In this document: positions 5,624 through 26,141 of the stretch, piece by piece | Numbering within the stretch: position 1 is the first letter of the stretch | Layout: every line of letters begins with the position of its first letter | NCBI GenBank assembly: GCA_964544425.1 | Contig: CAZJCX010000006.1 | Location: forward strand, 7,128 to 33,268 | DNA from: an uncultured Verrucomicrobiota bacterium | GTDB lineage: Bacteria; Verrucomicrobiota; Verrucomicrobiia; Palsa-1439 | DNA: 26,141 bases | Reading direction: 5' to 3' | Made by a program: the position numbers and the translations under genes | The notes under the pieces: model-generated | Told to the model about the DNA's origin: nothing | What the model saw: only the letters and a program-made list of their open reading frames with translations | Databases searched by the model: none

Positions 5624-5632
5624 TGCTATTCT
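5624..5632 (+). promoter_or_regulatory. Putative extended -10 promoter (leaderless) for the ABC ATPase
   Basis: TG-C-TATTCT, 8 nt upstream of ATG 5641. No SD. Confidence 0.45.
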
Positions 5633-5640
5633 GCGCTCGC

Positions 5641-6399
5641 ATGGCTGAGTTCATCGTGGCAGTGGATCATCTGCGGAAGGAGTTTAACGGCACCGTCGCA
5701 GTGGCGGACCTGTCGTTCACTGTGGCGCGCGGCGAAATTGTGGGTTTGCTGGGCGCGAATGGGGCCGGCAAGACCACGGCGATTCAAACGTTGCTGGGGC
5801 TGATCAAGCCAACGGCCGGGACAGTGCGAATTTTCGGCCTCGACCTGGAGAAGCACCGGGTGGCGATTCTGCAGCGGGCGAATTTCTGCTCGGCCTATAC
5901 CGGGTTGCCGTCGAATCTGAAGGTGTGGGAGAATCTGTTCATCTTCGCGCGGATTTACGGCGTGGCGGATCACAAGCGCAAAACGGCGGAGTTGCTCGAT
6001 CTGCTGGAGATCGCACATTTGCGCAAAGCGATTACCGGACACCTGTCGTCGGGCGAATCCACCCGCGTCAACATCTGCAAAGCGTTGCTGAACGATCCGG
6101 AATTACTGCTACTCGATGAACCGACCGCGAGTCTTGACCCGGACATGGCCGACAAATTACGCAAGCTGCTGCGGCGGATCCAACGCGAGCGCAACATCAC
6201 GATGATCTATACCTCGCACAACATGCGCGACGTGCAGGAAGTCTGCGACCGGGTGCTGTTCATGCACAAAGGCAAAATCATCGCCCAAGGCACCCCGCAA
6301 CAGGTGATGGATCAGTTCCAGCAAACCTCCCTCGAAGACGTCTTCATCAGCGTCGCGCGCGGCGGAGATGTGTTGGAGGCTGACGCGGCGGCGAAATGA
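5641..6399 (+). CDS. ABC transporter ATP-binding protein (ABC-2/CcmA-like export type)
   Basis: Walker A GANGAGKTT, signature variant LSSGE, Walker B LLLLDEPT and H-loop YTSH. Start at MAEFIVAV (5641). Confidence 0.9.
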   Translation: MAEFIVAVDHLRKEFNGTVAVADLSFTVARGEIVGLLGANGAGKTTAIQTLLGLIKPTAGTVRIFGLDLEKHRVAILQRANFCSAYTGLPSNLKVWENLFIFARIYGVADHKRKTAELLDLLEIAHLRKAITGHLSSGESTRVNICKALLNDPELLLLDEPTASLDPDMADKLRKLLRRIQRERNITMIYTSHNMRDVQEVCDRVLFMHKGKIIAQGTPQQVMDQFQQTSLEDVFISVARGGDVLEADAAAK

Positions 6400-10370: not shown

Positions 10371-11449
10371 GTGCGCATCCTCAACCGATACCTGCTGCGG
10401 GAATTCCTGCTGCCGTTCTTCTACTGCCTCGACGCCTTTGCGTTGCTCTGGCTGGTGATGGATCTGTTCGGGCGGCTCGACGACTTCATCGAGACCAAAG
10501 CCACGTTCCTCCAAGCCGCCCGGTACTATCTCGTCCTCTTCCCCGAAGCGCTCGTGCAAATCATCCCGATGGCCTTGCTCCTCGGCCTGCTCTTCAGCCT
10601 CGCCAACCTCGCCAAACACAATGAACTGCTCGCCATGCGCGCCGGCGGGGTCAGCCTGATCCGATTGGCCGCCCCCCTCTGGGGCATCGGTCTGATCGCG
10701 TCGCTCTTCGTTTTCGGCGTCAACGAGGTCTTCGTTCCCGGTGCCCGCGAAAAGGCCAACACCCTCCTGAAAATCTACCGGGGCAAGGCCACGACGTGGT
10801 GGAGAACATCTTCTTCACCAACCTCCAAGCCCATCGCGACTGGTACATCCCGCGCCTCAACACCCGCACGGGGGAACTGCTCGCCCCGGAAGTCCACGAA
10901 CGCAATCCCGACGGCTCACCGCGCCGCGACATCTTCGCCCAACGCGCCTACTGGAACGGCGCGCAATGGATTTTTCAAACCGTGGACGTGTACGACCACA
11001 CCGCCGCCGTGTCGCCGCCGCCCGTGGAACGGTTCCAGCAGATGTCTTTTCCGCAACTGAATGAAACCCCGCAGCGGCTCGTCACCGAAAATAAACTCCC
11101 CGTGGAAATGACCTCGCGCGAACTCCGCCGCACCATCCGCGCCTTCGACCGCGCCGGTCACGAGACCCGCACGCCCCCGCTCCGCGCCACGCTCCATCAC
11201 CGCTACGCTTTTCCCGCCACCTGTTTTTTCGTCATGTGGATCGCCCTCCCCCTCGGCCTCCAGACCCGCCGCAGCGGCGCGCTGCTCAGCGTCGGCACCG
11301 CGCTGATCCTCGTAGTCGCCTACTACATCGCCAGCCAGATCACGTTCAAACTCGCCGCGGGCGGCCACCTCCCGCCACCCTTGGCCGCCTGGCTCGCCAA
11401 CCTCGCTTTTCTCGTGGCCGGTGGTGTCCTGCTGTGGCGCATCCGGTGA
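10371..11449 (+). CDS. LptF/LptG family LPS export permease (one frameshift at ~10796, probably a sequence error)
   Basis: MRILNRYLLREF...NELLAMRAGGVSLIRLAAP (N-half) and HHRYAFPATCFFVMWIALPLG...LPPPLAAWLANLAF (C-half) lie in two frames that join at ACGACGTGGTGGAG. Confidence 0.88.
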
Positions 11450-11470
11450 CGGAGCGCCGCTCGCCACGAT

Positions 11471-11514
11471 GGTGGGCCGAGCGTCCCCCCGCTCGCGGGA
11501 ACGCTCGCGTTACC
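11471..11514. repeat. Degenerate or internally deleted palindromic repeat (second REP-like family)
   Basis: Arms CGAGCGTCCCC / GGGAACGCTCG are 10/11 complementary. The left end GGTGGGCCGAGCGTCCCC matches 24843-24860 at 15/18 nt. Confidence 0.5.
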
Positions 11515-11531
11515 GGCGCCGCGACGAACGC

Positions 11532-11560
11532 TTGCGGGGCTGGGGCTGTGCGACTACCAT
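11532..11560 (+). promoter_or_regulatory. Putative sigma70 promoter (leaderless) for the sigma54 regulator
   Basis: TTGCGG-17 nt-TACCAT, 7 nt before ATG 11568. Confidence 0.55.
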
Positions 11561-11567
11561 GCACGCC

Positions 11568-12974
11568 ATGCAGAAGATTTTAGTGGTGGATGACGAGGCT
11601 GATATCCGGCGGGCGTTTCGGCGCAATCTGGAAGGACCGGACCTGACGGTTGTCGAGGCGGGGGACGGGACAGAAGCGATCCGCGTCATTGCCCAAGAAC
11701 AACCGGACTTGGTGTGCATGGACATCCGGATGGGGGGGACGAACGGGCTGCAAACGTTGCGCAAACTGCGCGAGCTGAACCCGAAGTTGCTGATCATCAT
11801 GATGACGGCGTATGGGACGACGCAGACGGCCATCGAGGCGATGAAGCTCGGCGCGTATGATTACATTCTGAAACCGTTCGACGTGCCGAAGCTCAAGGCT
11901 TTGATCGCGGCGGGGTTGAAGGCGGCGCGCGACATGAAACAGGTCGTGAGCTACCAACCGTTGCTCGACAAGGAAGACTACGCCGAGGGAATCGTCGGCA
12001 GGAGCGAGCCGATGCAGCAAGTTTTCAAGCTGATCGGCCAAGTGTCGCAGTCCGACGCCACGGTCTTGATTACCGGGGAAAGCGGCACCGGCAAGGAACT
12101 CGTCGCGCGCGCCATCTATCACCACAGCGCTCGCGCCGGTCGGCCGTTTCTCGCGATCAACTGTGCGGCGATCCCGGAGCAGTTGTTGGAGAGCGGGTTG
12201 TTCGGCCACGAAAAGGGTGCGTTTACGGGGGCGAATGACCGCCGGATCGGGAAGTTCGAGCAATGTGACAAAGGGACGATCTTCCTCGACGAAATCGGCG
12301 ATATGCCGCCCGCCACGCAAACGAAAATCCTGCGCGTGCTGCAGAACGGTGAGTTCCAGCGCGTCGGCGGCAACCAGACGATCAAAGTGGATGTCCGCGT
12401 CATCGCGGCGACGAACCGGGAACCCGAACGACAAGTGGCGGAGAAAAAGTTCCGCGAGGATTTGTACTACCGGCTCAATGTCGTCCGCATCCACCTCCCC
12501 CCGTTGCGCGAGCGAGGGGAGGATTTGCCGGTGCTGGTGGATTACTTCATCCAGAAATCACAGAAGGTGAAGAGCATCGCCCCCGCCGCGTTGGTGTTGC
12601 TGCAGAAGCATACCTGGCCCGGCAACGTGCGCGAGTTGGAGAATGCGATGCAACGGGCGATTGTCGTGGCGCGCGGCGACTGCATTTTTCTCGAAGACCT
12701 CCCCGGTGACGTGCGGGATCCGCGTCCCGTGAGCGTGCCGCGCGAGCAGGTGGAGACCACGGTGGACGCGGCGGTCGCCACGCTCTTCGACCTGGCCAGA
12801 CGCGATCCGAAGTTCAGGCTGATTCTCGCCGTGGAGCGCGAGTTGATTACGCGCGCGCTGGCCGAGACGAGCGGCAATCAGGTGCAGGCGGCGAAGTTGC
12901 TGGGCATCACCCGCGCGACGCTGCGCAAGCGCATCGAGAAGTTCGGCATCGAGCGGCGGTTGGAAGTCATGTAA
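11568..12974 (+). CDS. Sigma54-dependent response regulator (NtrC/AtoC family: REC-AAA+-Fis HTH)
   Basis: [77 protein letters not shown] and NQVQAAKLLGITRATLRKR. Confidence 0.95.
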   Translation: MQKILVVDDEADIRRAFRRNLEGPDLTVVEAGDGTEAIRVIAQEQPDLVCMDIRMGGTNGLQTLRKLRELNPKLLIIMMTAYGTTQTAIEAMKLGAYDYILKPFDVPKLKALIAAGLKAARDMKQVVSYQPLLDKEDYAEGIVGRSEPMQQVFKLIGQVSQSDATVLITGESGTGKELVARAIYHHSARAGRPFLAINCAAIPEQLLESGLFGHEKGAFTGANDRRIGKFEQCDKGTIFLDEIGDMPPATQTKILRVLQNGEFQRVGGNQTIKVDVRVIAATNREPERQVAEKKFREDLYYRLNVVRIHLPPLRERGEDLPVLVDYFIQKSQKVKSIAPAALVLLQKHTWPGNVRELENAMQRAIVVARGDCIFLEDLPGDVRDPRPVSVPREQVETTVDAAVATLFDLARRDPKFRLILAVERELITRALAETSGNQVQAAKLLGITRATLRKRIEKFGIERRLEVM

Positions 12975-12985: not shown

Positions 12986-14332
12986 TCACGGCACCCACGT
13001 GGTGCCGGACTGGCGAAGTTCCTGCCAACTGACGACGGTGTAGCCGGTTGAGCCGGTCACGTTCTGGAGCGATTCGTCGTAGTGGAGATTGGCGTTGCCA
13101 CTGAAGGTGATTGAGTTGGCGACCACCGCCCCTTGCACTTCGCCATTGCCGCCGACGGAGAGCGCGGCGTTGGGCGCGTACAGCGTCCCGACGAACGAGC
13201 CGTTACCGGCGATGCTGGCGGAGGCGCAGGTGGACAGGCCGTGCCACTGATTGTCTTCGGCCCGGTTGTTATTCACAACCCCATTACCGGCCAGTGAAAT
13301 GGAACCGCCGCAATACACCTCGAGCCGGGCACCGGGAGAGATGCTGATCCGTCCGTTGCCGGTGATGCTGGTGTTGCCCGTGACGTAGAGTCGAACGGTG
13401 CCGGTAATGGTGAGGGTGCGATTGGCGGCGAGACTGATGCTGGAGGCCTGCCAATCACCACCAGCGATGGTCATGTTATTGTTGATCGTTCCGCCCGGCA
13501 CGGTCGGCGCACCGGCCAAGCCGGTCGGCAACGTGGCATCCGGCACGTCCACGTCGAAATCATTGCGAATCCAGCCATTGGCGGTGCCCGCCGCAACGGT
13601 GGTGGCGCGGTCGCCACTCACGAACGTGGGGCCAACACTGCCGTTCGGCCCCATCGTGACGGTGCCACTGGGGCCGGTGTAGGCGTAGCCGTAGATGTCG
13701 GCGTTGCCGATGTTAAGGCTGTTGATCAATTCACTATTGGTGGCCACGTTGCCGTTGGGCTGTTTCTTTGTCGCGTCGTATTGCCCCCCGGTGGACTTGG
13801 CGGGATCGGTCGAGTCAAAACTGTCGGCGTACATGTTGTTGCCATTCAGATTGATGGTGCTTTTGGACATGATGCCGACCGGATATTTGCTGCTGTTGGC
13901 GAGTTTGACGCGGACAGCGCGCGCGACGCTGCCGCCAAAACCGGCCGTGGTGATGGTGCCGACGCCGTCAATTTGCGGGGTGCTGCCGCCAACATTGCTG
14001 ACGGTGACCTGGGCAGCACCGACGACCTGGTTGAGGGCGTTGGTGACGGCGATCGTTTTGACATAGGTCCCGCTGCCGCCGCTCCAACCGCGGGAACTTT
14101 GAAAACCGGTGCCGCCGGCGGTGTATTGGTAGGTGTATTCGGCGAGGCCGGTCTCAATGGCGGCTTCGGCCAGATGCAACGATTGCGTCCAGTCGTGCGA
14201 CCGGAAATTGAGCCGCGCTTCGTTGGCCATGTAGGTGAGCAACCCCGCTACGACGATGGCGAGGATGGACGAGGAGACGGCCGCAGCGGTGATGGCGGAG
14301 CCGCGTTCGCTATGAAGCTGGCGGTGATGCAT
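12986..14332 (-). CDS. PilX/GspK-like tip minor pilin with large C-terminal repeat domain (module 2)
   Basis: Basic leader + RGSAITAAAV hydrophobic helix lacking Glu5. SLHLAEAAIETG is a PilX N-terminal motif. About 300 aa of S/T/G/N-rich repeats follow, ending in SWQELR. Confidence 0.75.
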   Translation of the reverse strand: MHHRQLHSERGSAITAAAVSSSILAIVVAGLLTYMANEARLNFRSHDWTQSLHLAEAAIETGLAEYTYQYTAGGTGFQSSRGWSGGSGTYVKTIAVTNALNQVVGAAQVTVSNVGGSTPQIDGVGTITTAGFGGSVARAVRVKLANSSKYPVGIMSKSTINLNGNNMYADSFDSTDPAKSTGGQYDATKKQPNGNVATNSELINSLNIGNADIYGYAYTGPSGTVTMGPNGSVGPTFVSGDRATTVAAGTANGWIRNDFDVDVPDATLPTGLAGAPTVPGGTINNNMTIAGGDWQASSISLAANRTLTITGTVRLYVTGNTSITGNGRISISPGARLEVYCGGSISLAGNGVVNNNRAEDNQWHGLSTCASASIAGNGSFVGTLYAPNAALSVGGNGEVQGAVVANSITFSGNANLHYDESLQNVTGSTGYTVVSWQELRQSGTTWVP

Positions 14333-14339
14333 GGGGACC

Positions 14340-14876
14340 TCATGGTTTGTTGCGCATGTCGAACCGGGCGGAGAGATAGTCCTCGGACTGGATCTGGCTG
14401 ATGACCTGTTTACGAAGCTGAAGATCCACTTGGATGCCTTTGGCGGTGCTCAGGACGGTGGTGTTGGAGCCGACCTTGTCGTAGAGGTAAAAGGTCAACG
14501 CGTGAATATTGGTGGCGAGCATCCGCGTGCCCGTGGTGGACTCGGTCCGGTAAAGCCCACCGTGGTTGACTGAGTAGGTGATCGTTTTGGAAGTGGAGAC
14601 GCTGCCGGACGTCGTGAACGCTGTCGGTATGGTGACGACGAGGTTGGACGAGTTGAACGAGACGATGGAATTGACCGCCCGCATATCGCGCGAGAACCAG
14701 TCAATAGCTGACCGGCCGCTGGCGTGGATCTCCGTGTAATTACTGATCGCTTGAAAACCTTTGACGGACATGATGTAGGTGGTCGTGATCCCGCCCATGA
14801 CGATCCCGCCGATGGCTGCCGTCAGCAATAGCTCTGGGAGAGTGAAGCCTGCCGTGTTGTGGCGATGCCGTTTCAT
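14340..14876 (-). CDS. PilW/GspJ-like minor pilin (module 2)
   Basis: MKRHRHNTAG|FTLPELLL class III signal peptide, followed by GRSAIDWFSRDMR. Confidence 0.8.
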   Translation of the reverse strand: MKRHRHNTAGFTLPELLLTAAIGGIVMGGITTTYIMSVKGFQAISNYTEIHASGRSAIDWFSRDMRAVNSIVSFNSSNLVVTIPTAFTTSGSVSTSKTITYSVNHGGLYRTESTTGTRMLATNIHALTFYLYDKVGSNTTVLSTAKGIQVDLQLRKQVISQIQSEDYLSARFDMRNKP

Positions 14877-14878
14877 GG

Positions 14879-15298
14879 TCAGAAGATGTAGGTGTTGATG
14901 CCGCCGTTGCCGACGAGTGACGTGAGAGTGTTGGTGACCGGACGGCCGGTCTGACTGCGCCACGTCAGGGTCAGGGTGACGCACTTGACCGTCGTCGCGC
15001 CGTTAAAGCTGTCCACCGTGGTTTGCGTGACTTGCCCGGTGTACACGCCGATGGCTGTGTCCACGAAGTTGGTCGGATAGACTGCCAACTGCGACCAACT
15101 CAACAGCCGGATGTCTTCCATGCGTTGCTGCAGGATTTGCGACGCTCGCGCTGCCCGGCGGAAGTCCGCAACGTACCGGGTCGCATGAGAGGTGACCGCC
15201 AACACAGAAGTGAGAGCCACCGCAAGAATGACGGAAGCCAGCAGCACCTCCAGCAACGCAAAACCACCGGTTTTCCGCAGATTTCGTCGGATTATCAT
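14879..15298 (-). CDS. PilV/GspI-like minor pilin (module 2)
   Basis: MIIRRNLRKTGG|FALLEVLLA class III signal, followed by ASQILQQRMEDIR. Confidence 0.8.
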   Translation of the reverse strand: MIIRRNLRKTGGFALLEVLLASVILAVALTSVLAVTSHATRYVADFRRAARASQILQQRMEDIRLLSWSQLAVYPTNFVDTAIGVYTGQVTQTTVDSFNGATTVKCVTLTLTWRSQTGRPVTNTLTSLVGNGGINTYIF

Positions 15299-15315
15299 CG
15301 GTGCCGCCGGAGTAG

Positions 15316-15332
15316 AAGCATCGCGAGTACCG
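15316..15332 (-). promoter_or_regulatory. Putative sigma54 promoter for minor-pilin module 2
   Basis: Minus strand CGGTACTCGCGATGCTT (GG-N10-GC) in the 68-nt gap between the modules. Confidence 0.55.
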
Positions 15333-15366
15333 CGCGCGGCACCGACAGGCCTCGCACTCGTGCGAC

Positions 15367-16695
15367 TCAGGGTACCCACGAGCCGCCCGACGGCCGCAGT
15401 TCCTGCCACGAAGCGATGCTGTACGATGCGCCACCAGTCGAGGCGTTCAACGATTCGTCGTAGTGGTACGACCCGTTGCCCGATACGGTGATCGAGTCGG
15501 CGACGAGCGCGCCGGAAAAGTTGCCGTTGCCACTCGTCGAGATCGCCGCCTGCGGGGCGTAAATGGTGCCGACCCAATCGGCATTGCCGCTCATGCTGAC
15601 GGACGTGCAGCCCGGTAGACCGAACCACTGATTCTGCGTCGGCGTGACCCCGTTGTTCAGCACGCCGTTACCGGAAATGCTGATCGCACCGGTGGTATAG
15701 ACTTCCAGCTTCCCGCCGGCGTTGATCTGGATTTTGGCGTTACCCGAAATGCTGGTGCTGCCGTTCACATACAGGCGGACGGTGCCGTTGATCTGCACCG
15801 TGCGGTTGCCAGACAAACTGATCCCGCTGGCCTGGTAATCGCCGCCGTTGATCGTGGAGGAAGAGTTGATCGTGCCGAGCGAGGGCGCGCTGCTCAAGCC
15901 GGACGGCAATGACACATCCGAGACGGTCGTGGAATTGTTCTGCGTGAACCAGCCGTTGGCCGCTGCCGTGGCCGCGTTGCTAGCCTGCCCCGTAAAGGCG
16001 GGCCCGACCGCCGCGTTGCCGCTCATCGTCATCGTCCCGCTGCCGCCGACCCCGGCGGTGCCGTGGATGTTCGCATTACCGCTAAGTGTGATCGGTGAAC
16101 CGCTCGTCGCCATCGCGCCGACGTTGCCATTCGCCTGTTTCTTGGACGAATCGTACGCCCCACCGGTGGATTTCGTCGGATTGCTCGAGTCGTAGCTATC
16201 CACTGTGGCATTACCGGACATGGTGATCGTACTTTTCGACAACAAGCCCATCGGGAACATGCTGCCCCCCGCAAAGCCCACCCGCACGGCCCGCGCGACG
16301 TTGGCCGTGCCGACCACCGATGTGACGGTGCCGATCCCGGTGATCTGCGGCGTCCCAACGCCAATCCCGGTGGCCTGCACGGTCAGATGGCCGACGCTCG
16401 CGCCGCCGTTGTTGGTGAAATTGCTGACGGTTTTGGTGTAGCTGCCGCCGCTCCCGCTCCAACCCCGGCCCGATGTGAAACCGCTCCCGCCTTGCAGGTA
16501 CTGGTACTTGTACTCCGCAATCCCGATTTCCGCCGCCGCTTCCGCCAGTTGCAACGCCGACGCCCAGTAGTGGGAGCGCCGGTTGAGCCGCTCCTCGTTG
16601 ACCGTGTAGGTGAGAAACCCGGCCACGAGGATGGACACAATCGCCGCGCTGACCGCGGCCGCCGTAATCGCCGAACCTTGCGTGTAAGACTTCAT
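15367..16695 (-). CDS. PilX/GspK-like tip minor pilin with large C-terminal repeat domain (module 1)
   Basis: MKSYTQGSAITAAAVS, ALQLAEAAAEIG, nine SGN turns and the ending SWQELRPSGGSWVP. Has an ATGA overlap with the upstream gene. Confidence 0.75.
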   Translation of the reverse strand: MKSYTQGSAITAAAVSAAIVSILVAGFLTYTVNEERLNRRSHYWASALQLAEAAAEIGIAEYKYQYLQGGSGFTSGRGWSGSGGSYTKTVSNFTNNGGASVGHLTVQATGIGVGTPQITGIGTVTSVVGTANVARAVRVGFAGGSMFPMGLLSKSTITMSGNATVDSYDSSNPTKSTGGAYDSSKKQANGNVGAMATSGSPITLSGNANIHGTAGVGGSGTMTMSGNAAVGPAFTGQASNAATAAANGWFTQNNSTTVSDVSLPSGLSSAPSLGTINSSSTINGGDYQASGISLSGNRTVQINGTVRLYVNGSTSISGNAKIQINAGGKLEVYTTGAISISGNGVLNNGVTPTQNQWFGLPGCTSVSMSGNADWVGTIYAPQAAISTSGNGNFSGALVADSITVSGNGSYHYDESLNASTGGASYSIASWQELRPSGGSWVP

Positions 16696-17234
16696 TTGTT
16701 CCGCATCTCCCACCGGGCCGAAGTTGTCGCCACGATGTTGGTTTTGCCGAGCACGCGTTTGCGAAGGTTGAGCGCGGCTTCAATTCGCTTCACGCTGCCG
16801 GTCGCGGACGTGGCGCTGCCGGCGCTGTCGTAAAACGAAAACGTCAGGCTGGTCACGTTCGTCGCCAGCATCGTCGTCACCGTGCCGGTATTCACTTCGC
16901 GCCGGTAGACCATCCCGTTCTGAATCCAATAACTGACCGTCTTGTTCGACACGACACTGCCGTTGCTGAACGCCGTCGGCACCCGCAAGGCCACGTTCGT
17001 GCTCAACGCCGTCGTCACTGCGCTGGAGGCCCGCACGTCGCGCCCCATCAAATCCAATATCCGCCGTGTGTCACCGTGCATCTCCGTATAATTGGAGACG
17101 TGGGCGAAACTGCGCGCGGAGAAAATGTACGTTGACATGATCGCCGTCAGCACCAGCGCCCCGATGGCGGCCGCCACCAAGACTTCCACGAGCGTGAAGC
17201 CCGCGCGCTGCCGGATGACCGGGTTACATGACAT
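16692..17234 (-). CDS. PilW/GspJ-like minor pilin (module 1)
   Basis: RQRAG|FTLVEVLVA class III signal, followed by TRRILDLMGRDVR. Confidence 0.8.
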   Translation of the reverse strand: MSCNPVIRQRAGFTLVEVLVAAAIGALVLTAIMSTYIFSARSFAHVSNYTEMHGDTRRILDLMGRDVRASSAVTTALSTNVALRVPTAFSNGSVVSNKTVSYWIQNGMVYRREVNTGTVTTMLATNVTSLTFSFYDSAGSATSATGSVKRIEAALNLRKRVLGKTNIVATTSARWEMRNK

Positions 17235-17652
17235 ACGTGTTCAACCCGCTGTTGGTGATCAAGGTGGTCACGGAATTCGTTTGGACCCGGTAGGCCTTGT
17301 TCGTCCACGTCGCGCTGATCGTCACCCGCAGTACGGTGGTTGAACTGCTGTACGTGTCGTAGGCCGCCGTCGAAATCAACCCCCGAAACTTGCCGGCCGT
17401 GTCCGTCGAGTCGGTGAACGTGCTCGGCAACGCCTGCACCTGCGCCCACGACATCGTCCGAACCTCTTCCGCCTTGCGTTGGACGATCTGCGACGATTGC
17501 GCGCTCCACCGGACATTCGCCATCAGCCGGGCCGCCTGTGACGCAACCGCGAGCACCGATGTCAACACGAAGGCCAGGATGACCGTGGCGATCATCGCCT
17601 CGATCAACGTGAACCCCGCGCGTCCGCTGAGTCGTTGTCGCTGCCTGACCAT
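17224..17652 (-). CDS. PilV/GspI-like minor pilin (module 1)
   Basis: SGRAG|FTLIEAMIA class III signal, followed by SSQIVQRKAEEVR. Confidence 0.8.
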   Translation of the reverse strand: MVRQRQRLSGRAGFTLIEAMIATVILAFVLTSVLAVASQAARLMANVRWSAQSSQIVQRKAEEVRTMSWAQVQALPSTFTDSTDTAGKFRGLISTAAYDTYSSSTTVLRVTISATWTNKAYRVQTNSVTTLITNSGLNTYVM

Positions 17653-17674
17653 GTTGCCCGTCGCGGTCCGCCCG

Positions 17675-19108
17675 CTAGCGCGGCCCGAAATTGGTTTGTG
17701 TTTCGCCGGCTTTGACGTCGTCCGTCTTGTCGTTGGCCGGTGCCTTCAGCAGTTGGCGCGGCTTGGCGTTATCCCCCGGCATCCACTTGTCGTTGGCGTA
17801 CACTTCCTCCGGCACCATCCCACCAATCTGGGTTTCGTACCCGGTTTGTTGATCAGGTCCGATGATCGTCGGCGTCAGAAAGATGAGCAGGTCACGCTTG
17901 CTCTTGTTCAAACTCTTGCTGCGGAACAACCGCCCCAAACCGGGCACATCTCCCAGTAACGGCACTTTGGTATACCGATCATCCACGTCCGTCCGCATCA
18001 ACCCGCCGATGGCCAGCGTGTGGCCGCTCTTGATCAAGACTGTCGTGCTGGCGGTTCGGGTGTTGACGATCGGAATCTCCACCGCCGAGCCGCCTCCGCT
18101 CTGGAGCGTCGCGCTCTCCGTCGAGCTGCTCGCTTCCGGCTGCACTTCAAGTGTGATGTAACCGTTCTTGTTGATGCGCGGGGTGACGTTCAGGATGATC
18201 CCAATGTCCTTGTACTCGAAGCCCGAGATTTGCAGCGAGGCGGTCTGCTCACTGAAGGTAAAATTCGGGATCGGGAACTGCGTCGCGATGGAAATCTTCG
18301 CCTTGCCGTTGTCCGTCGTCACGATCCGCGGGCTGGCCAGCAACTCCGTGTCCGCGTCGCGATTGATGAACGAGAACACCGCCTTGGCCTGGCCCAGGTT
18401 CAGGAACGCCGTGGCCGGTGTCCAACTCCACGGCCCGCCGTTGATGTTGTGCTCCAGCGTGAAATCCTGCGTGGAGACTTCGTGGTTCAACAGTGTGTCC
18501 GTCCAGTTGATCCCCAAGTCCTTCTTCGGATTCTTCGTGGTCTCCACAAATTTCGCCTCGATCATCACTTGGGGTGTTTCGGAATCCAGTTGCTGGATCA
18601 ACGGCAACAGTTTCGCGAGGTTCGAGGGTGTATCCGAAAGGATCAGCGTGTTGCTCCGAGCATCCACCTGCGCTTTGCCGCGCGCCGTCAATACCGGCAG
18701 CAGTGCGGTCTGAATCTCGGTCGCCTTCGCATAGTTCAGCGTCACCAACCGCAACTCCACCGGCTCGGTGTCCAACAATTCCTTGGACTTGATCTTCACC
18801 ACTTTGCCATCGGGGACGTACGCGAACCCTTTCGATTCGACAATCAACTTCATCGCGTCCTCGTAGCTGACGTCTTCGAGATGAACTGTGACCTTGCCCT
18901 GCACTTCGTCGCCGAGAATGAGATTCACTCCGGCGCGCGACGCGAGCGAACGCAGCACGTTTTGAATGTCGGCCTCGATATACTCAATGACGACTTTATC
19001 GTCCGCGGGTGCCCCCTCCGTTGCGGGAGCCGGTGCCGCTTCTTCCGCCGCCTGGATGGGTAACACCGCGCTCATCAAACCGAGGGCCAAATACGTAATC
19101 ATTTTCAT
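17675..19108 (-). CDS. pilQ: Outer-membrane secretin (PilQ/GspD family)
   Basis: Start MKMITYL with SD GGAG. N0-like ADIQNVLRSLA...GKVTVHL, N3-like DARSNTLILSD, and secretin core PQVMIEAKFVE, LASPRIVTTDN, VTPRIN, KVPLLGDVPGLGRLFRS and LLIFLTPTII. Confidence 0.9.
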   Translation of the reverse strand: MKMITYLALGLMSAVLPIQAAEEAAPAPATEGAPADDKVVIEYIEADIQNVLRSLASRAGVNLILGDEVQGKVTVHLEDVSYEDAMKLIVESKGFAYVPDGKVVKIKSKELLDTEPVELRLVTLNYAKATEIQTALLPVLTARGKAQVDARSNTLILSDTPSNLAKLLPLIQQLDSETPQVMIEAKFVETTKNPKKDLGINWTDTLLNHEVSTQDFTLEHNINGGPWSWTPATAFLNLGQAKAVFSFINRDADTELLASPRIVTTDNGKAKISIATQFPIPNFTFSEQTASLQISGFEYKDIGIILNVTPRINKNGYITLEVQPEASSSTESATLQSGGGSAVEIPIVNTRTASTTVLIKSGHTLAIGGLMRTDVDDRYTKVPLLGDVPGLGRLFRSKSLNKSKRDLLIFLTPTIIGPDQQTGYETQIGGMVPEEVYANDKWMPGDNAKPRQLLKAPANDKTDDVKAGETQTNFGPR

Positions 19109-19122
19109 AGCAACTCCTTGCC

Positions 19123-19139
19123 TAGCAGGCGTCAAGCCA
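19123..19139 (-). promoter_or_regulatory. Possible sigma54 promoter upstream of the secretin
   Basis: Minus strand TGGCTTGACGCCTGCTA (GG-N10-GC) in the 43-nt gap. The predicted start would leave only ~5 nt of leader. Confidence 0.4.
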
Positions 19140-19151
19140 GCGACGAAATCG

Positions 19152-19718
19152 CTACTCGGACGCGGTTGCGCGGTTGGCAGCCCCCAGCCGCAGTTCCAAT
19201 TTCTGCCCGCCCACTTCCAACAGCACAATTTCGCGCGTGATCTCCAGTGCACGAACTTGCAAGTCGCCGTGCGCCGTCTTCACCGTCACCGGCTTGTTCA
19301 ACTCGACCACTTTATCGTTCACCAACGCGGCTGGCCGCGTGGCATGATACAAAATGCCTTTCAACTGCAACTCCACCGGCACCGCCACCGCGATGGGCGC
19401 GGCGCCAGCGGTCGGCTCCGCGACTGGCTGATTTCCAAACGGGTCGCGTGGAACCGAAGGAGCGTACTCGGAAGCGTGCAATTCCAGCGGATTCGCCGGC
19501 GGTTTGGCGTAGCCAACCGCACAGAGAAACAGAAAGATCACCACGAACAGCGCGATCTGACCAACCGCCAACAAACCTGCCCACCGCAATGCCGACGGCA
19601 ACCCGTCCACGCGTTCCGCGCAGTCCGCGACGGCGACCGGTCGCCGGACGGAAACTGGCGCCGTGACGGCTGTCGCTGCCGCCACCGGCCACGGCAGGGA
19701 AGTTGTCTGCGTTTTCAT
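19152..19718 (-). CDS. PilP/GspC-like alignment protein
   Basis: Start MKTQ has an ATGA overlap with the pilO stop. One TM segment, RDPF motif and LQLKGILY...AALVNDKVV beta domain. Sits between pilO and the secretin. Confidence 0.65.
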   Translation of the reverse strand: MKTQTTSLPWPVAAATAVTAPVSVRRPVAVADCAERVDGLPSALRWAGLLAVGQIALFVVIFLFLCAVGYAKPPANPLELHASEYAPSVPRDPFGNQPVAEPTAGAAPIAVAVPVELQLKGILYHATRPAALVNDKVVELNKPVTVKTAHGDLQVRALEITREIVLLEVGGQKLELRLGAANRATASE

Positions 19719-20298
19719 GATGCGTTGGCCTCCGGTTTCTTCGCCGGCTTTTCCGGCTGAATCAGCAACCGCAAATCGAGCACCGCATTGTGACGCCCCT
19801 CCGCCTGCCCGGTCACCGCGAGGGACCGAATCTCCGCCGTCGGAAACCGATTTTCCAAATCCCGAATGAACGCGCCGAGTTGGTCGTAGTTGCCGGTGAT
19901 TTCCAACCGCGTCAGGTAGGTGGGATACTTCGGCCGGTTGGCTGGTTCGCCTTTCGTGCCGGGCCGCAGGCCAATCACTTGAATCGGATGTTCCTCCGCC
20001 AGCAGGGTGATCTCGCAAACGGGTGGCCGCTGATCATTCCCGCCTCTTGCGCGGCCACAAAAGCTCGCACCTCATCCCGGAACTCCTCGTTGGCAGCTGC
20101 CAACTGCGCCTTCTTTTCCGCTTCGGCAATCTGATCTCTCAAGGTGGCGACTTTGTCCCGCGCCGTTGCGCGGGTGTTCCATTGGTTGAGCACATAGAAC
20201 TGAAACACGCCCGCCACCACTGCGAGCGTGACGATGCCAATCAGCACCACTTGCTGCTTCTTCTCTTTCGGCAACGCACGCACCGTGGCCAGATTCAT
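19715..20298 (-). CDS. pilO: PilO/GspM-like protein (frameshift at ~20015)
   Basis: N-half MNLATV...TM...coiled coil and C-half EITLLAEEHPIQVIG...LEITGNYDQLGAFIRDLENRFPTAEIRSL are in different frames. ATGA overlaps with both neighbours fix the ends. Confidence 0.75.
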
Positions 20299-20957
20299 TG
20301 TTTCTCCTTGTACCGGCACTCAATGACGAAGAACGCCGAGTTCACGGTGCTGCCCGGTGTGGCGCCTTCGGCCGAAACGCGGGCGATCGAGCGCAGTTGA
20401 ATGTCCGTGACGACCGCGCTAAACCGCGCGTCCGTCCGCAACGTCTGCAAAAACTTGTCCACTTCCAACTCCGGCCGGGCCGCCAGCGCCTTGCCATCCA
20501 ATCGCAAGGTCAGGCGTTCCGCGCGTTTCGGGCGGGCTGGCTTGCCGGTCGGATCCTCGTCAGGGTTGGCCTCCACCGCCGTGTTCTCGGTCGCGATGGC
20601 AAAATCGAAGCGCGAAAGCTGAATCGTGGCGGGCACCACATCTTTCAACAACGCCAACTGCGGCGCGCACAACTGCCGCGCGCGGTTGCCGGCCACGATG
20701 TCATCGGCCAGCCGCTTCACAGTCTGAAATTCCCCTTCACCGGCGCCGATGCCTTCCAACTCGTGCCAGCGGGCTTCCAACGCTCGCGCCTCGGCGACCG
20801 CACGGCTGGCCACGATCCCCGTCACCGCTCCCAGCGTCGCGACCGTTGCGGCCACGCCGAGACCCAGCGCCAGGAACAGCTTGACCGGGTCCTGCGCGCG
20901 CTGTTCCTGTGCGTGCTGCTCCTGGGCCAGCAGATTGAGTGTGATTGCTGTCATCAT
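20295..20957 (-). CDS. pilN: PilN-like protein
   Basis: ITLNLL N-terminal PilM-binding-type motif, a TM helix, a coiled coil and a ferredoxin-like C-terminus (LTLRLDGKA...EVDKFLQTL). Follows pilM. Confidence 0.75.
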   Translation of the reverse strand: MMTAITLNLLAQEQHAQEQRAQDPVKLFLALGLGVAATVATLGAVTGIVASRAVAEARALEARWHELEGIGAGEGEFQTVKRLADDIVAGNRARQLCAPQLALLKDVVPATIQLSRFDFAIATENTAVEANPDEDPTGKPARPKRAERLTLRLDGKALAARPELEVDKFLQTLRTDARFSAVVTDIQLRSIARVSAEGATPGSTVNSAFFVIECRYKEKQ

Positions 20958-20964
20958 GATTCCC

Positions 20965-22005
20965 CTACGAAAGCCGCGCCATCACCACGCCGACTGCCGC
21001 CGCCAGCGACGGTCCCAACGCCGTCACCCGCGGCGTCTCGCCATTGAAACCGCTCACATCCAGCGACGTCACCGGATTCCAACACTCGACCTTCATGCCG
21101 ACCGCTTCGCTGAGGAATCCGAGCAGATCCGCCGAAGTGGCCGACCCGCCACAGGCGAAGATCTGCCGGACCCGGTGGTCGTGTTGGCGCTCAAAGAAAT
21201 CAATCGAAGACCGGACTTCACGGGCCAGCGGCGAAATGGCCGAGCGCACCAGCTCTTTGACCGGCTCGGACATCTTCAGCTTTTCCTCCTCGGCCTCGCG
21301 CAGTTCGAGCATCAGAATCTGGCTGATGTATTCGCTGAGCTGCTCGCCACCGAAGTGCATGATGCGGGTGATCAACGGCACCCCGTTCTGGATGAAATTG
21401 ATACTGGTCGTCCGCGCCCCGATGTCCACCAGCACGACCACGTCTTCCGGTGGCAGGGGGTGCGCCATGTGAAGGGAGTTCATCACCGAGACAGCCGCCA
21501 GTTCAATCGCGTCCGGCTTGATCTTCGCCGCCACCAACGCATCCCGGCAGGCGTCCACTTCTTCTTTGTTTGCGCCGCCCACGAGCACTTTGGTTTTGGC
21601 GGTGTCTTTCGACTCGCCGTTTTGCAGCGCGACGGCATCGAGGTAATACGAGGAGAAGTCCCGGCGGAGATACTTGGCGCTGTTGAATTTTAGGGCGTTT
21701 TTGATTTCCGGCAACGGCATCGGCGGAAATTCGGTCTGGCACACCATCGCCGATACGCAGCTGACCGTGACAAAGGCGTGCCGGTCGGAAATCTTGAGCC
21801 CATCCACCAACGCCTGCAGTTCCGTCACCGCATGGGGCTCGCGATATTGCTTGCCGTTGCCCGCCGGCAGAGCCCGCACGGCGTATTCGACCAACTCGAA
21901 TTTGTCGCCATGCCGGCGAACGACCGCCGCCTTGATCTGGCTGTTGCCGAGATCGAGACCGAGCGCGACGTTTTTCTTAACTTGCTTGTTTCGACGAAAG
22001 ATCAT
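20965..22005 (-). CDS. pilM: Type IV pilus assembly protein PilM (actin-like)
   Basis: LGLDLGNSQIKAA, VLVDIGARTTSINF, FGGEQLSEYI, EVRSSIDFF, IFACGGSA and WNP. Start chosen at MIFRR (22005). Confidence 0.9.
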   Translation of the reverse strand: MIFRRNKQVKKNVALGLDLGNSQIKAAVVRRHGDKFELVEYAVRALPAGNGKQYREPHAVTELQALVDGLKISDRHAFVTVSCVSAMVCQTEFPPMPLPEIKNALKFNSAKYLRRDFSSYYLDAVALQNGESKDTAKTKVLVGGANKEEVDACRDALVAAKIKPDAIELAAVSVMNSLHMAHPLPPEDVVVLVDIGARTTSINFIQNGVPLITRIMHFGGEQLSEYISQILMLELREAEEEKLKMSEPVKELVRSAISPLAREVRSSIDFFERQHDHRVRQIFACGGSATSADLLGFLSEAVGMKVECWNPVTSLDVSGFNGETPRVTALGPSLAAAVGVVMARLS

Positions 22006-22029
22006 GCCATCATTTCCCAGAGATGTGAG

Positions 22030-22046
22030 TAGCACGTGATGTGCCG
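22030..22046 (-). promoter_or_regulatory. Putative sigma54 promoter for pilMNOP
   Basis: Minus strand CGGCACATCACGTGCTA (GG-N10-GC, GGCAC core) in the 44-nt gap after pilin 2. Confidence 0.65.
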
Positions 22047-22049
22047 CGG

Positions 22050-22424
22050 CTAATACACTCCCCAGTCCACGTCAATTCCGGTCATCGCGCTCTTCGTGGT
22101 CGTCGAGATCTGCACCTGGTTGGTGCCCACTTTATTAATGATGAAGGGATTGCCGAGTGTATCGGTCGTCGGTACCACGCCGGTCTTGGTGTAGGACGCA
22201 ACTTCCGTCAGGTCCACATCGTCTCCATCAGCTTTGCTTTTCTCCATCGCCCACTCGTCAATCGCCGTATCAATGATCCGCACGTCGTTGAGAATGCGTT
22301 TGGCTTGGGACTGCTTGCGAACTTTGATGAAACTGGGGCTGGCCAGCGCCGCGAGCAGACCAATGATCGCGACGATGATCATGATCTCCAACAGCGTGAA
22401 GCCGGCCCGCTTCAAGTACCTCAT
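22050..22424 (-). CDS. Type IV pilin 2 (major-pilin paralogue)
   Basis: MRYLKRAG|FTLLEIMIIVAIIGLLAALASPSF with a strong SD AAAGGAGG. Confidence 0.92.
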   Translation of the reverse strand: MRYLKRAGFTLLEIMIIVAIIGLLAALASPSFIKVRKQSQAKRILNDVRIIDTAIDEWAMEKSKADGDDVDLTEVASYTKTGVVPTTDTLGNPFIINKVGTNQVQISTTTKSAMTGIDVDWGVY

Positions 22425-22470
22425 CACACAGCCTCCTTTCGTCAGATTGCGGTTGCCATCCCCGTTTGTG

Positions 22471-22499
22471 AAAAAGGCAGGTGGGGTCGCCACCTGCCT
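22471..22499 (-). terminator. Intrinsic terminator between pilin 1 and pilin 2
   Basis: Perfect 10-bp stem AGGCAGGTGG/CCACCTGCCT with a 5-nt loop, followed on the minus strand by a U run (TTTT). Confidence 0.85.
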
Positions 22500-22534
22500 G
22501 AATCACACCGCGCAGTCAGCGCGTGCAGACGGAC

Positions 22535-22915
22535 TTAGTACGTGCCCCAATCAATGCCCACGCCCGTCAGCGCGGTCTTGGTGGTGGTCGCGACCGTAAT
22601 CTGGTTCGTGCCGACGGTGCCGACGGCAAACGTGTTACCCAACAGGTCGGTGGTCTTCCAGCTACCCTTCAGGTAGGTGGCCGCACCGGACGTGCTGACG
22701 GTCGCGCCGTCGCTCTGGCCGGTTTCCAACGCCCACTGGTCAATCGCGGCATCCATCTGACGAACGTCGTTAAGAATGCGGCGACCTTGCGATTGCTTAC
22801 GGGCTTTCACGAAGCCCGGCACGGCGAGCGCCGCGAGCAACCCGATGATGGCCACCACGATCATGATTTCCACCAACGTGAACGCTGCGCGGCTCTGACG
22901 AATCTTGCTGATCAT
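22535..22915 (-). CDS. pilA: Type IV major pilin (PilA-like)
   Basis: MISKIRQSRAA|FTLVEIMIVVAIIGLLAALAVPGF with SD AAAGGGAG. First gene of the locus, with its own promoter and terminator. Confidence 0.88.
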   Translation of the reverse strand: MISKIRQSRAAFTLVEIMIVVAIIGLLAALAVPGFVKARKQSQGRRILNDVRQMDAAIDQWALETGQSDGATVSTSGAATYLKGSWKTTDLLGNTFAVGTVGTNQITVATTTKTALTGVGIDWGTY

Positions 22916-22954
22916 ATCTCGACTCCCTTTCTGGTTATGACGTTATGTATGTTT

Positions 22955-22972
22955 GCAGGTCAAACGACCCGC
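22955..22972 (-). promoter_or_regulatory. 5'-terminal stem-loop of the predicted pilin mRNA
   Basis: Minus-strand GCGGGUC-GUUU-GACCUGC (7 bp with one G-U) begins at the +1 predicted from the sigma54 motif (~22971). Confidence 0.45.
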
Positions 22973-22980
22973 ACCACGTT

Positions 22981-22997
22981 AAGCAGCGCCGATGCCA
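22981..22997 (-). promoter_or_regulatory. Putative sigma54 promoter for pilin 1
   Basis: Minus strand TGGCATCGGCGCTGCTT (TGGCA-, GG-N10-GC). Confidence 0.75.
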
Positions 22998-23084
22998 CCG
23001 CCGCCGCGTGCGGGAGCGACCATGGTGGCTCGCGAAATTGTCCCGCCCGGCTGCCAAATCTGTCCGCGCCCTGACAATTCCCGG

Positions 23085-23100
23085 TGGCATCACCACTGCT
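23085..23100 (+). promoter_or_regulatory. Putative divergent sigma54 promoter for the TMTC-like gene
   Basis: TGGCATCACCACTGCT has the same TGGCATC...CTGCT frame as the pilin promoter. Predicted +1 is ~23111, 3 nt before ATG. Confidence 0.65.
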
Positions 23101-23113
23101 CAATCTTGCGACA

Positions 23114-24784
23114 ATGCGTATCTCACCAGTGCGATCCATCATTTTTGTCATCGCCGCCACGCTGCTGGCTTACGTCAACAGCCTGCCCAACGATTTCGTC
23201 TGGGATGATGAAACACTCATCAAAACCAATTCCCACATCCGCAACTCCACCTACCTCGCCACCGTCTTCACGTCCGACCTCGCGCACCATTCCCACGCCG
23301 GCACCGCCTACTACCGGCCGCTCCAAACCGTCACCTACATGGCGGACTACTATTTCTGGGGGCTGAACCCCACCGGCTATCATCTCACCAATCTCCTGCT
23401 CCACGCCTTCTGCGCCATCCTTGTCTTCTTCACCGTCCGCCACTTCACTGACCAGCCGGTCATCCCGCTGGCTGTCGCGCTGCTCTTTGCCGTCAATCCG
23501 CTCAACTCCAGCGCTGTCACCTACATTGCCGGGCGGGCGGATTCCCTGGCGCTGGCCGGAATGCTCGGCGCATTTCTATTTCATCAACACTACCGGGCCG
23601 CGCCGAACCGATCGGTGCTGTACTTCATGGCCGCCCTCCTCTGCTACGTTGCCGCCCTCCTCAGCCGCGAAAGCGCCATGCTCTTTCCCGCCCTCTTCCT
23701 CGTCGCCGCCGGTCGGCCTTATCGCCGGGTGCTGCCCTTTCTCCTGCTCCTCGGCGCGTTCCTCCTCTGGCGCCACGCCGTGATTCAACTGCTCGACAAA
23801 CCGCTCGTGGCCCCGTGGGATGTCTCCCTCGCGCAACGCCTCGAAATCTTCTGCCGCAGCGTCGCCACTTACCTCGGACTGCTGTTCTGGCCGGTGCATC
23901 TGCAAATGGACCGCAGCGTCGTCCACGCCTCCCACTGGCTCACGGCTGCCGGAATCGCGGGCCTCATCGCCCTCGCGCTCGCCTTCTGGCGCGGCACCAA
24001 GCCGGTGCGCCTCGGTCTCGCCTGGTTCGGCGTGGCGCTCCTGCCCATGACCGGTCTGCTCAACCTCGTCGCCACCGTCGCGGAACACTGGCTTTACGTC
24101 CCCATGATCGGGTTTTACTTCGCCCTCGCCAGCCTCATTCCTTGGCGCAAAACGACCAGCCTCGCCGCGCTGCTCCTCCTCGTCGTGCTGACCGGCCGCA
24201 CCGCTTTGCGCAACCGCGACTGGGCCGATGGGGCGACACTCTTCGCGCGGCAGACCGAATCCGCCACCCACAGCGAACGCGCCTTCACTAACCTCGGCCA
24301 CACCCAATTTGCCGCCGGCGACACCACCAGCGGCCTCGCCACGCTGCGGCGCGCGGAACAACTCAACCCCCGCAGCACCACGGCAAAATTCAATCTCGCC
24401 GTCGTCCACCTCAAACGCGGCGAAAACGATCTGGCCCGGCAAAAACTCGAAGAATGTGCCGCGCTGGATCCGACCGACGAAACGCTCTGGGAACTCGTCG
24501 CCCAAATCCACGACGCCCAAGGCCACGCCGGCCTCGCCACCCGCTACTACCGGACCGCGCTGGCCTGCACCCGCGATGTCGGCCTGCGGCTCCGGTACGC
24601 CCGCTTCCTCGTCCGCCACAGCCGCGCCAAAGAAGCTCTCGCCATTACCGAGGAAAGTCTCTACCTCGAACCCGGCAACGCGGAAGTCTTCTACTTTCTC
24701 GCCGAGATTCTCACCCACATCGGCCACCACGCCCGCGCCGCCGAAGCCCGCCACCTCGCCACGACGCTTGACCGGCATTCGTGA
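23114..24784 (+). CDS. TMTC-like GT-C membrane glycosyltransferase with TPR repeats
   Basis: AYVNSLPNDFVWDDETLI (DD loop), YYRPLQTVTYMADY, GYHLTNLLLH, LFAVNP...VTYIAGRADSL, EHWLYVP, RNRDW and TPRs (FTNLG, FNLAVVHL). Start at MRISP (23114). Confidence 0.82.
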   Translation: MRISPVRSIIFVIAATLLAYVNSLPNDFVWDDETLIKTNSHIRNSTYLATVFTSDLAHHSHAGTAYYRPLQTVTYMADYYFWGLNPTGYHLTNLLLHAFCAILVFFTVRHFTDQPVIPLAVALLFAVNPLNSSAVTYIAGRADSLALAGMLGAFLFHQHYRAAPNRSVLYFMAALLCYVAALLSRESAMLFPALFLVAAGRPYRRVLPFLLLLGAFLLWRHAVIQLLDKPLVAPWDVSLAQRLEIFCRSVATYLGLLFWPVHLQMDRSVVHASHWLTAAGIAGLIALALAFWRGTKPVRLGLAWFGVALLPMTGLLNLVATVAEHWLYVPMIGFYFALASLIPWRKTTSLAALLLLVVLTGRTALRNRDWADGATLFARQTESATHSERAFTNLGHTQFAAGDTTSGLATLRRAEQLNPRSTTAKFNLAVVHLKRGENDLARQKLEECAALDPTDETLWELVAQIHDAQGHAGLATRYYRTALACTRDVGLRLRYARFLVRHSRAKEALAITEESLYLEPGNAEVFYFLAEILTHIGHHARAAEARHLATTLDRHS

Positions 24785-24842
24785 CCAGCACTCTTCGCCC
24801 GCAGTGCGGACGCCATGCCGCCCCCCCCGCTACACCAGTGAC

Positions 24843-24900
24843 GGTGGTGTGAGCGTCCCCGCGAGCGGGTGACCGGTCTCGCGGGGATGCTCGGTCAACC
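24843..24900. repeat. Palindromic REP/REPIN-like element (second family)
   Basis: Arms GAGCGTCCCCGCGAG (24851-24865) and CTCGCGGGGATGCTC (24878-24892) are 14/15 complementary, with outer ends GGT...ACC. Related to 11471-11514. Confidence 0.6.
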
Positions 24901-24922
24901 TCCGTCGCACAACCGGCCAAGC

Positions 24923-24954
24923 AAAACAGCCGGGAGGCAGTGCCTCCCGGCTGT
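24923..24954 (-). terminator. Intrinsic terminator of the second sigma54 regulator
   Basis: Perfect 13-bp stem ACAGCCGGGAGGC/GCCTCCCGGCTGT with a 3-nt loop and a short U run on the minus strand, 17 nt after the stop. Confidence 0.75.
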
Positions 24955-24971
24955 GATGTCGCTTACGATGA

Positions 24972-26141
<1,170 letters not shown>

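Follow-up and report, generated by a model that had tools for sequence, protein, structure and literature searches.

A TMTC-like GT-C glycosyltransferase gene divergent from a major pilin gene across paired sigma54 motifs in a Verrucomicrobiota bacterium: a candidate pilin glycosylase

The group IV pilin of Pseudomonas aeruginosa Pa5196/PA7 is glycosylated by the D-arabinofuranosyl transferase TfpW, a 646-residue GT-C enzyme with a cytoplasmic N-terminus, 11 transmembrane helices and a large periplasmic TPR domain (10.1101/2020.04.19.049825). TfpW carries an essential DDX motif in periplasmic loop 1, finds its best structural template in ArnT, is encoded beside pilA and is both necessary and sufficient for glycosylation of Thr/Ser in the pilin (10.1101/2020.04.19.049825). 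The animal proteins TMTC1-4 (CAZy GT105) are O-mannosyltransferases of cadherins and protocadherins (PMC7801869). Proteins combining GT-C and TPR parts and described as "TMTC-like" are very numerous in Verrucomicrobiota, Planctomycetota and Omnitrophota; in the literature, no substrate assignment was found for a bacterial TMTC/GT105-like protein, and nothing relevant was found on Verrucomicrobial pilin glycosylation. The analysis reported here concerns one such enzyme, encoded back to back with a major pilin gene in a 26,141-nucleotide (nt) stretch of contig CAZJCX010000006.1 from an uncultured Verrucomicrobiota bacterium (the window, meaning the whole stretch analysed). The source genome (G000) is a 77%-complete metagenome-assembled genome with a 3.5-Mb assembly, whose DNA was found in hot-spring metagenomes; genomes and loci or contigs of relatives used in the comparisons are designated by G and L numbers, respectively.

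Identity of the enzyme and the paired sigma54 motifs

A model of the 556-residue enzyme was built with AlphaFold2 (AF2) on 36 homologues, with a predicted local distance difference test score (pLDDT) of 91.3 and a predicted template modelling score (pTM) of 0.91. The secondary-structure layout of the model, read against the TMTC topology of PMC7801869, comprises eleven membrane helices, three loop helices and a TPR superhelix starting at residue 373, and with this topology the DD loop would, like the TPR domain, face the periplasm. In a fold search of Swiss-Prot the 14 best matches were all animal TMTC1-4, matched over the full length (E 1e-21 to 1e-25, template modelling score by query 0.64-0.74, 19-22% identity), and the next match was to the TPR domain only of OGT (E 1.7e-7). 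Comparison of the membrane domain (residues 1-383) with solved chains using VIA-align gave alignments of 310-333 residues with Pmt1/Pmt2 (Z 19.2), Pmt4, AglB and ArnT (5f15, Z 18.6). The GT-C fold was visible with VIA-align, whereas Foldseek against the PDB returned only TPR matches, and PDB sequence searches using the whole protein or a 36-sequence membrane-domain profile returned TPR matches or none. Scans of the whole protein and of residues 1-369 against Pfam and NCBIfam identified only TPR families; no Wzy_C domain was found in the Pfam scan, residues 1-369 were without any Pfam match at E up to 10, and DUF1736 (PF08409) did not match the enzyme and was found among the homologues only in the distant P0113. 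The TMTC-like character proposed in a preliminary description of this DNA was borne out by fold, architecture and motifs, although the proposed search against TMTC was positive on the structural side only, the DUF1736 hidden Markov model giving no match.

The acidic WDDE loop noted in that description is present as W30-D31-D32-E33 within the segment F28-V-W30-D31-D32-E33. Invariant positions in all 36 homologues are D31-D32, Y67-R68-P69, R141-x-D143, [R/K]185-E186, [D/E]266, P311 and E324-H325-x-x-Y328, and these map onto the TMTC motifs M1-M7 of PMC7801869. Motifs M1 (DD), M3 (RxD) and M4 ([K/R]E) are present in the enzyme, and parts only of M2 (SHKSYRP), M5 (DW), M6 (PxxP) and M7 (ERxxY) were identified, namely YRP, [D/E]266-R267, P311 alone and E324-H325-x-x-Y328. 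As three motifs depart from the animal form and no DUF1736 match was obtained, the protein is named TMTC-like and not TMTC. It is almost certainly a TMTC-like GT-C enzyme and is predicted from its motifs to be catalytically intact; its identity and the promoter motifs described below are solid.

The pilA genes of Pseudomonas, Myxococcus and Geobacter have a PilR/RpoN-dependent -24/-12 promoter, and a PilR-type activator is encoded nearby. Two 16-nt motifs of the -24/-12 form, TGGCATCGGCGCTGCT facing the pilin and TGGCATCACCACTGCT facing the enzyme, were found in the window exactly 87 nt apart (Table 1), as had been described. Their common frame was matched twice in the window and never in 100 shuffles, and the looser pattern TGGCAY-N5-YTGCW occurs only at these two sites in the window and only 17 times in the 3.5-Mb genome. 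Both sites have the sigma54 form GG-N10-GC with TGGCAY / YTGCW flanks, rpoN is present in the assembly (contig C49), and no sigma70-like promoter was detectable in 22400-25000. The pilin-side motif was identified in 30 of 30 related loci, 61-82 nt 5' of the pilin ATG. The enzyme-side motif lies 12-20 nt 5' of the ATG in the window and in L009, L010, L011, L012, L013 and L017, its GG-N10-GC spacing, CTGCT end and ATG distance remaining constant while the neighbouring sequence diverges, and L018 carries the weak variant TGGTTT-N5-TTGCT; the enzyme-side motif is restricted to a single subclade. Conservation of both promoter motifs extends to relatives with about 45% enzyme identity. An opposite-strand motif within 500 nt upstream of the pilin was present in five of seven enzyme-bearing loci and in none of the 23 enzyme-lacking loci. 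Because of this absence the enzyme-side motif is assigned to the enzyme gene, and the alternative that it is a mere part of the pilin enhancer was ruled out.

Part of the 87-nt spacer between the motifs is conserved between the window and L009, and no activator site was definable in it beyond imperfect inverted repeats. The spacer is nevertheless a putative activator binding site, and its geometry suggests that one enhancer may activate pilin and enzyme together. Co-regulation of the two genes by sigma54 in this lineage is considered probable: the presence of rpoN, the adjoining activator gene and the conservation of both motifs argue for this part of the preliminary description, and the loss of the enzyme-side motif in part of the clade argues against extending it to every member.

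The start codon GTG 23084 given for the enzyme in the open reading frame (ORF) listing lies inside the promoter motif and was rejected in favour of the conserved ATG 23114, established by comparison with relatives. In standard -24/-12 numbering the C of GC is position -12, placing the transcription start about 11 nt past the motif. A sigma54 motif 12-20 nt before the ATG implies a near-leaderless enzyme mRNA, with a predicted 5' untranslated region of about 3 nt in the window and about 2-10 nt over the relatives, which would leave no room for a Shine-Dalgarno sequence. The enzyme gene is not alone in this: of the 17 strict sigma54 motifs in the genome, seven stop 12-18 nt short of the ATG of a long ORF (Table 1), the ORFs behind them encoding a receiver protein, a PilT-like ATPase, a radical-SAM/SPASM protein, a FadL-type porin, an acyl-CoA synthetase-like protein, a 184-residue protein without a Pfam match and the GT-C enzyme, and this suggests that near-leaderless sigma54 transcripts may be common in this Verrucomicrobium.

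Other elements of this kind were observed in and around the window. A weaker GG-N10-GC motif, CGGCAC-N5-GTGCT, at 22031-22046 (-) of the window precedes an in-frame ATG of the PilM ORF by 25 nt and may serve the operon as an internal sigma54 promoter. A third motif, TGGCATCGGCGTTGCT, nearly the same as the pilin-side motif, was found at G000:C6:34861 (-), about 1.6 kb past the right end of the window and upstream of a partly masked stretch, and may be the promoter of a PilC/activator unit. In the enzyme-lacking loci L095-L120 of the largest genus, a conserved palindrome TTGCAG-AA-CTGCAA followed by GAATTCTCAGG precedes the pilin sigma54 motif by about 75-95 nt; the palindrome is a candidate binding site of a PilR-like activator and is not recognisable in the window. 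Among metatranscriptome contigs compared with 22000-23400, most matches fell on the conserved N-terminus of the pilin and came from many organisms, with no match to the intergenic region or the enzyme gene. One contig of the hot-spring RNA run X7 is about 93% identical to the pilin gene over window positions 22530-22873 at a word depth of 88, and therefore represents the pilin sequence of a close relative in an RNA library.

Linkage to the pilin and the candidate acceptor

Conservation of the gene pair was assessed in an order-wide survey of 47 genomes, in which homologues of at least 39% identity were counted as orthologues of the enzyme. The pilin was found in 42 of the 47 genomes, 72-92% identical at the best locus and often in several copies, and an enzyme orthologue in only about 11, from genera g1, g2, g3, g11 and g14 and from one genome of a second family. 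The orthologue is divergent beside the pilin gene in nine of the 11 (at least five genera and two families, by coordinate comparison), so that the recurrence of such pairs in related genomes, which the preliminary description had put forward as a check, was observed; of the remaining two, that of G004 lies at a contig edge and that of G007 elsewhere. In the metagenome contigs L009-L011, carrying homologues 86%, 65% and 55% identical to the enzyme, one or more pilin genes are divergent from the enzyme gene in every case. The orthologues form one clade in a quick maximum-likelihood tree (Shimodaira-Hasegawa-like approximate likelihood ratio test, 94).

About 32 of the 47 genomes retain the pilin and lack the enzyme. 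In orthologue-lacking genomes the position immediately upstream of the pilin is taken, in the same orientation, by an activator orthologue of about 70% identity, and because the activator abuts the pilin there, the enzyme gene is seen to occupy the activator-to-pilin intergenic region, which is the upstream region of the pilin promoter. As judged from gene content, the enzyme gene is accessory, lodged in the enhancer region of the pilin, and would be dispensable for the pilus as such, a behaviour that by analogy matches that of known pilin-modifying accessory genes. The conserved linkage to the pilin is real but confined to one clade.

Of 72 distant members of the family (27-35% identical; from Omnitrophota, Planctomycetia and other groups), five are abutted on the same strand by pilin genes, one or two prepilin genes each (L033, L056 and L086 from Planctomycetia, L042 and L069 from Omnitrophota). 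These five are scattered on the tree, their enrichment is modest (roughly threefold over flanks), and their linkages are apparently independent of that in the clade. The source genome has at least six GT-C/TPR paralogues including the enzyme, and no pilin-like gene was found near the other five. One of these paralogues, 29% identical to the enzyme, lies in the window at 3771-5654 (-), and at least four others lie on contigs C224, C119, C4 and C169 of G000. In the order-wide survey the pilin was also seen in up to six dispersed copies per genome (60-84% identity), many of them solitary and away from the pilus operon.

In the mechanism proposed here, the enzyme would cross the membrane with 11 helices, expose its active-site loops in the periplasm and continue into a periplasmic TPR domain. 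The donor is presumably a polyprenyl-phosphate-sugar. The enzyme gene, lodged between the PilR-like activator and major pilin genes, would be transcribed divergently from its own sigma54 motif, whose position against the start codon would give a near-leaderless mRNA, and since a single 87-nt spacer separates the two motifs, pilin and enzyme are probably switched on jointly by the same activator. Before assembly, a membrane-anchored prepilin has its globular domain in the periplasm, and the enzyme would most likely O-glycosylate Ser/Thr of this domain at that stage, with the TPR domain capturing the pilin, as in TfpW for the Pseudomonas group IV pilins.

The pilin is favoured as acceptor by the constant, accessory and clade-wide adjacency of the two genes, by the recurrence of pilin neighbours in two further phyla, by the periplasmic location of the TPR domain and by the TfpW precedent. 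It is the best single hypothesis from genomic context and is held tentatively, the enzyme being a good candidate pilin glycosylase. The complete explanation, a TMTC-type enzyme that shares sigma54 control with the pilin and O-glycosylates it, is considered quite possible but short of probable. A more far-reaching version is doubtful as a whole: that in this clade a bacterial TMTC-type enzyme would for the first time have an assigned acceptor, O-glycosylating Thr/Ser of the pilin beta-sheet as the prokaryotic counterpart of TMTC mannosylation of cadherin beta-strands, with TfpW in the same superfamily of TPR-guided GT-C enzymes and with a near-leaderless sigma54 transcript sharing the pilin enhancer.

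Several observations weigh against the pilin as acceptor. The 16 Thr counted earlier in pilin residues 65-126 were confirmed, and the minor and tip pilins are indeed rich in Ser+Thr (20-25% against about 10% in the long ORFs of the genome). However, neither feature serves as the pointer to an acceptor for which it had been taken. The C-terminal Ser+Thr of the pilins number 10-20 in enzyme-bearing and 12-20 in enzyme-lacking genomes, no Ser/Thr column separating the pilins of the two groups was found, and the pilin family as a whole is rich in Thr. Nor does the occurrence of the DUF7305 tip pilins follow that of the enzyme: most enzyme-bearing genomes lack them, and several genomes without the enzyme have them. 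In addition, the orthologue of G007 (L016) is not beside a pilin gene, most members of this large GT-C/TPR family are not near pilin genes, the enzyme-side motif is absent from G006/L014, G005/L015 and G001/L131 though the pilin linkage is retained there, and no genes for synthesis of a donor sugar were found in the locus. A complex prediction for the enzyme with pilin residues 30-126 scored 0.00, without controls, and carries no weight either way.

The enzyme might instead be switched on with the pilus and modify other periplasmic or surface proteins, such as the secretin, the minor pilins or unrelated envelope proteins, merely borrowing the enhancer region of the pilin. The six or more paralogues of the genome suggest broad protein glycosylation, and a wider range of acceptors would also agree with a pilin Ser/Thr content independent of the enzyme, with the lack of pilin linkage in most of the family and with a genomic set of sigma54 motifs that covers diverse genes. 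Yet the major pilin is the only constantly adjacent partner, the DUF7305 tip pilins do not vary with the enzyme, apparently independent pilin linkages occur in two other phyla and TfpW offers a precedent for a pilin acceptor, so that other proteins as acceptors are regarded as rather unlikely. A non-protein acceptor, with the enzyme as an ArnT-like transferase decorating lipid A, peptidoglycan or exopolysaccharide during surface attachment, is improbable. Among solved structures ArnT is the nearest homologue of the TMTCs (PMC7801869), and its match to the membrane domain is about equal to that of the Pmt proteins (Z 18.6 against 19.2), but it has no TPR domain, the TPR domains of TMTC and TfpW are linked to protein acceptors, and the full-length architecture with its C-terminal TPR is far closer to TMTC1-4 than to anything else.

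Least probable of all is a non-catalytic role in pilus biogenesis, as a TPR scaffold or a pilotin like PilF, PilW or TadD. The weak matches of the TPR domain to PilW/PilF models and structures, and the TadD or PilF labels given to several homologues by JGI, reflect generic TPR similarity (the PilW model scored 37.8 bits against a cutoff of 154), whereas all catalytic and ligand motifs are invariant, the 11 transmembrane helices that precede the TPR in the AF2 model describe a polytopic inner-membrane protein and not an outer-membrane lipoprotein, and the pilus locus is present without the enzyme in most relatives. It is also improbable that the adjacency is meaningless, the result of a single insertion into a permissive intergenic region that was then inherited, with an enzyme-side motif that is no working promoter. 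Such an origin would agree with the single appearance of the divergent linkage on the tree and with the loss of the enzyme-side motif in part of the clade; against it, the linkage persists at enzyme identities as low as 39% and across two families while the flanking genes change, the GG-N10-GC spacing and ATG distance are retained amid diverging sequence, and the motif is missing from every enzyme-lacking locus. Modification of the pilin by the enzyme, as set out above, remains the preferred reading of the locus.

Features of the locus

The coordinates of the features are collected in Table 1. The major pilin gene is the head of a minus-strand pilus operon, the remainder of which contains genes for PilM, three unnamed genes, a gene for a secretin and two minor-pilin sets, each closing with a 448-residue DUF7305 protein. 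Another activator gene was identified by Pfam at 11421-12974 of the window. The L010 orthologue of the window's PilR-like activator includes a receiver domain, and a PilC-like T2SSF gene comes after it. Two genes elsewhere in the window are split, an aconitase gene into the overlapping frames 1034-1516 / 1471-3708 and an LptF/LptG-family permease gene into 10371-11060 / 10796-11449, each by a frameshift that reflects either an assembly error or a pseudogene.

Table 1. Coordinates of the pilin-enzyme locus and of related sigma54 motifs (window positions unless a contig of G000 is given)
Feature	Position	Strand	Description	Domain matches
Major pilin gene	22535..22915	(-)	126 residues; N-terminus AFTLVEI, no Cys, C-terminus DWGTY	Pfam N_methyl, partial NCBIfam GspG/PilA
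Sigma54 -24/-12 motif of the pilin operon, TGGCAT-N5-CTGCT	22982..22997	(-)	about 66 nt 5' of the pilin ATG	
Spacer between the promoter motifs, 87 nt	22998..23084		candidate shared enhancer; imperfect inverted repeats 23023-23042 / 23073-23092	
Enzyme-side sigma54 -24/-12 motif, TGGCAT-N5-CTGCT	23085..23100	(+)	13 nt 5' of ATG 23114	
TMTC-like GT-C glycosyltransferase gene	23114..24784	(+)	556 residues; domain of 11 transmembrane helices, residues 1-370, and periplasmic TPR domain, 373-556	
G+C-rich hairpin terminator	24926..24954	(-)	13-bp stem, 10 G-C pairs, T tail; separates the GT-C gene from the activator gene, the two being convergent	
PilR-like sigma54 enhancer-binding activator gene	24972..26141	(-)	N-terminus beyond the window end	Pfam Sigma54_activat, AAA_lid_14, HTH_8
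Second, paralogous pilin gene	22050..22427	(-)	58% identical to the first pilin	
Remaining pilus operon	12986..22035	(-)		Pfam PilM_2, Secretin, N_methyl, DUF7305
Seven strict sigma54 motifs ending 12-18 nt before an ATG	G000 C1:5718, C149:3826, C171:5231, C18:1020, C187:2751, C244:1494, window 23085			

Comparison with described systems

The locus connects two literatures that are usually separate, those of TfpW-type pilin glycosylation and of eukaryotic TMTC O-mannosylation. With a gene locked to that of the major pilin and to its sigma54 enhancer, the clade presents a concrete and testable acceptor and an entry point to the large orphan family of bacterial TMTC-like proteins, and close relatives with a nearly identical pilin, with or without the enzyme, form a natural comparison set. 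The back-to-back sigma54 motifs also provide a compact model of one enhancer for two promoters and of leaderless sigma54 transcripts.

The enzyme shares with TfpW the 11-helix GT-C domain, the DD in periplasmic loop 1 and the periplasmic TPR domain, and its gene likewise lies directly beside that of the major pilin and is accessory, occurring in some lineages only. The preliminary description had set TfpW apart from TMTC-like enzymes, a separation that does not hold for a protein which is itself a GT-C enzyme with 11 transmembrane helices and a periplasmic TPR domain encoded beside pilA (10.1101/2020.04.19.049825). Because TfpW already shows an enzyme of this architecture glycosylating the neighbouring pilin, a pilin substrate is not unprecedented for it and the present finding is not a new principle. 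The proline motif YX6PFX7P of TfpW is absent from the enzyme, as judged by a regular-expression search that also allowed relaxed spacing, and the enzyme gene is upstream of and divergent from the pilin with its own sigma54 motif, whereas tfpW is downstream of pilA. A search of the 77%-complete genome gave no DprE1-type ALO domain (PF04030), and the transferred sugar is for this reason probably not D-arabinofuranose.

The whole architecture, 11-helix GT-C domain and extracytoplasmic TPR domain, superposes on that of TMTC1-4, and the DD (M1), the YRP of M2, RxD (M3), [K/R]E (M4) and the E..Y of M7 are shared. However, the His/Lys of M2 is not conserved, and the enzyme has [D/E]-R and not D-W in M5 and an invariant His in place of the Arg of M7, has no DUF1736 match and is shorter, with 556 residues and about five TPR pairs; its lipid carrier would be a bacterial polyprenol. 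PglL and PilO(TfpO) are likewise polytopic enzymes of the inner membrane acting on pilins in the periplasm, and tfpO, too, is a neighbour of pilA, but they belong to a Wzy_C-type family that transfers preassembled glycans en bloc, a family of which the enzyme carries no signal. With the PilR/RpoN-dependent pilA promoters the locus has in common a major pilin gene with a -24/-12 motif and a PilR-type activator gene nearby, and it differs from them in a second, divergent sigma54 motif that lies in the common upstream region, 13 nt from the start codon of the enzyme gene.

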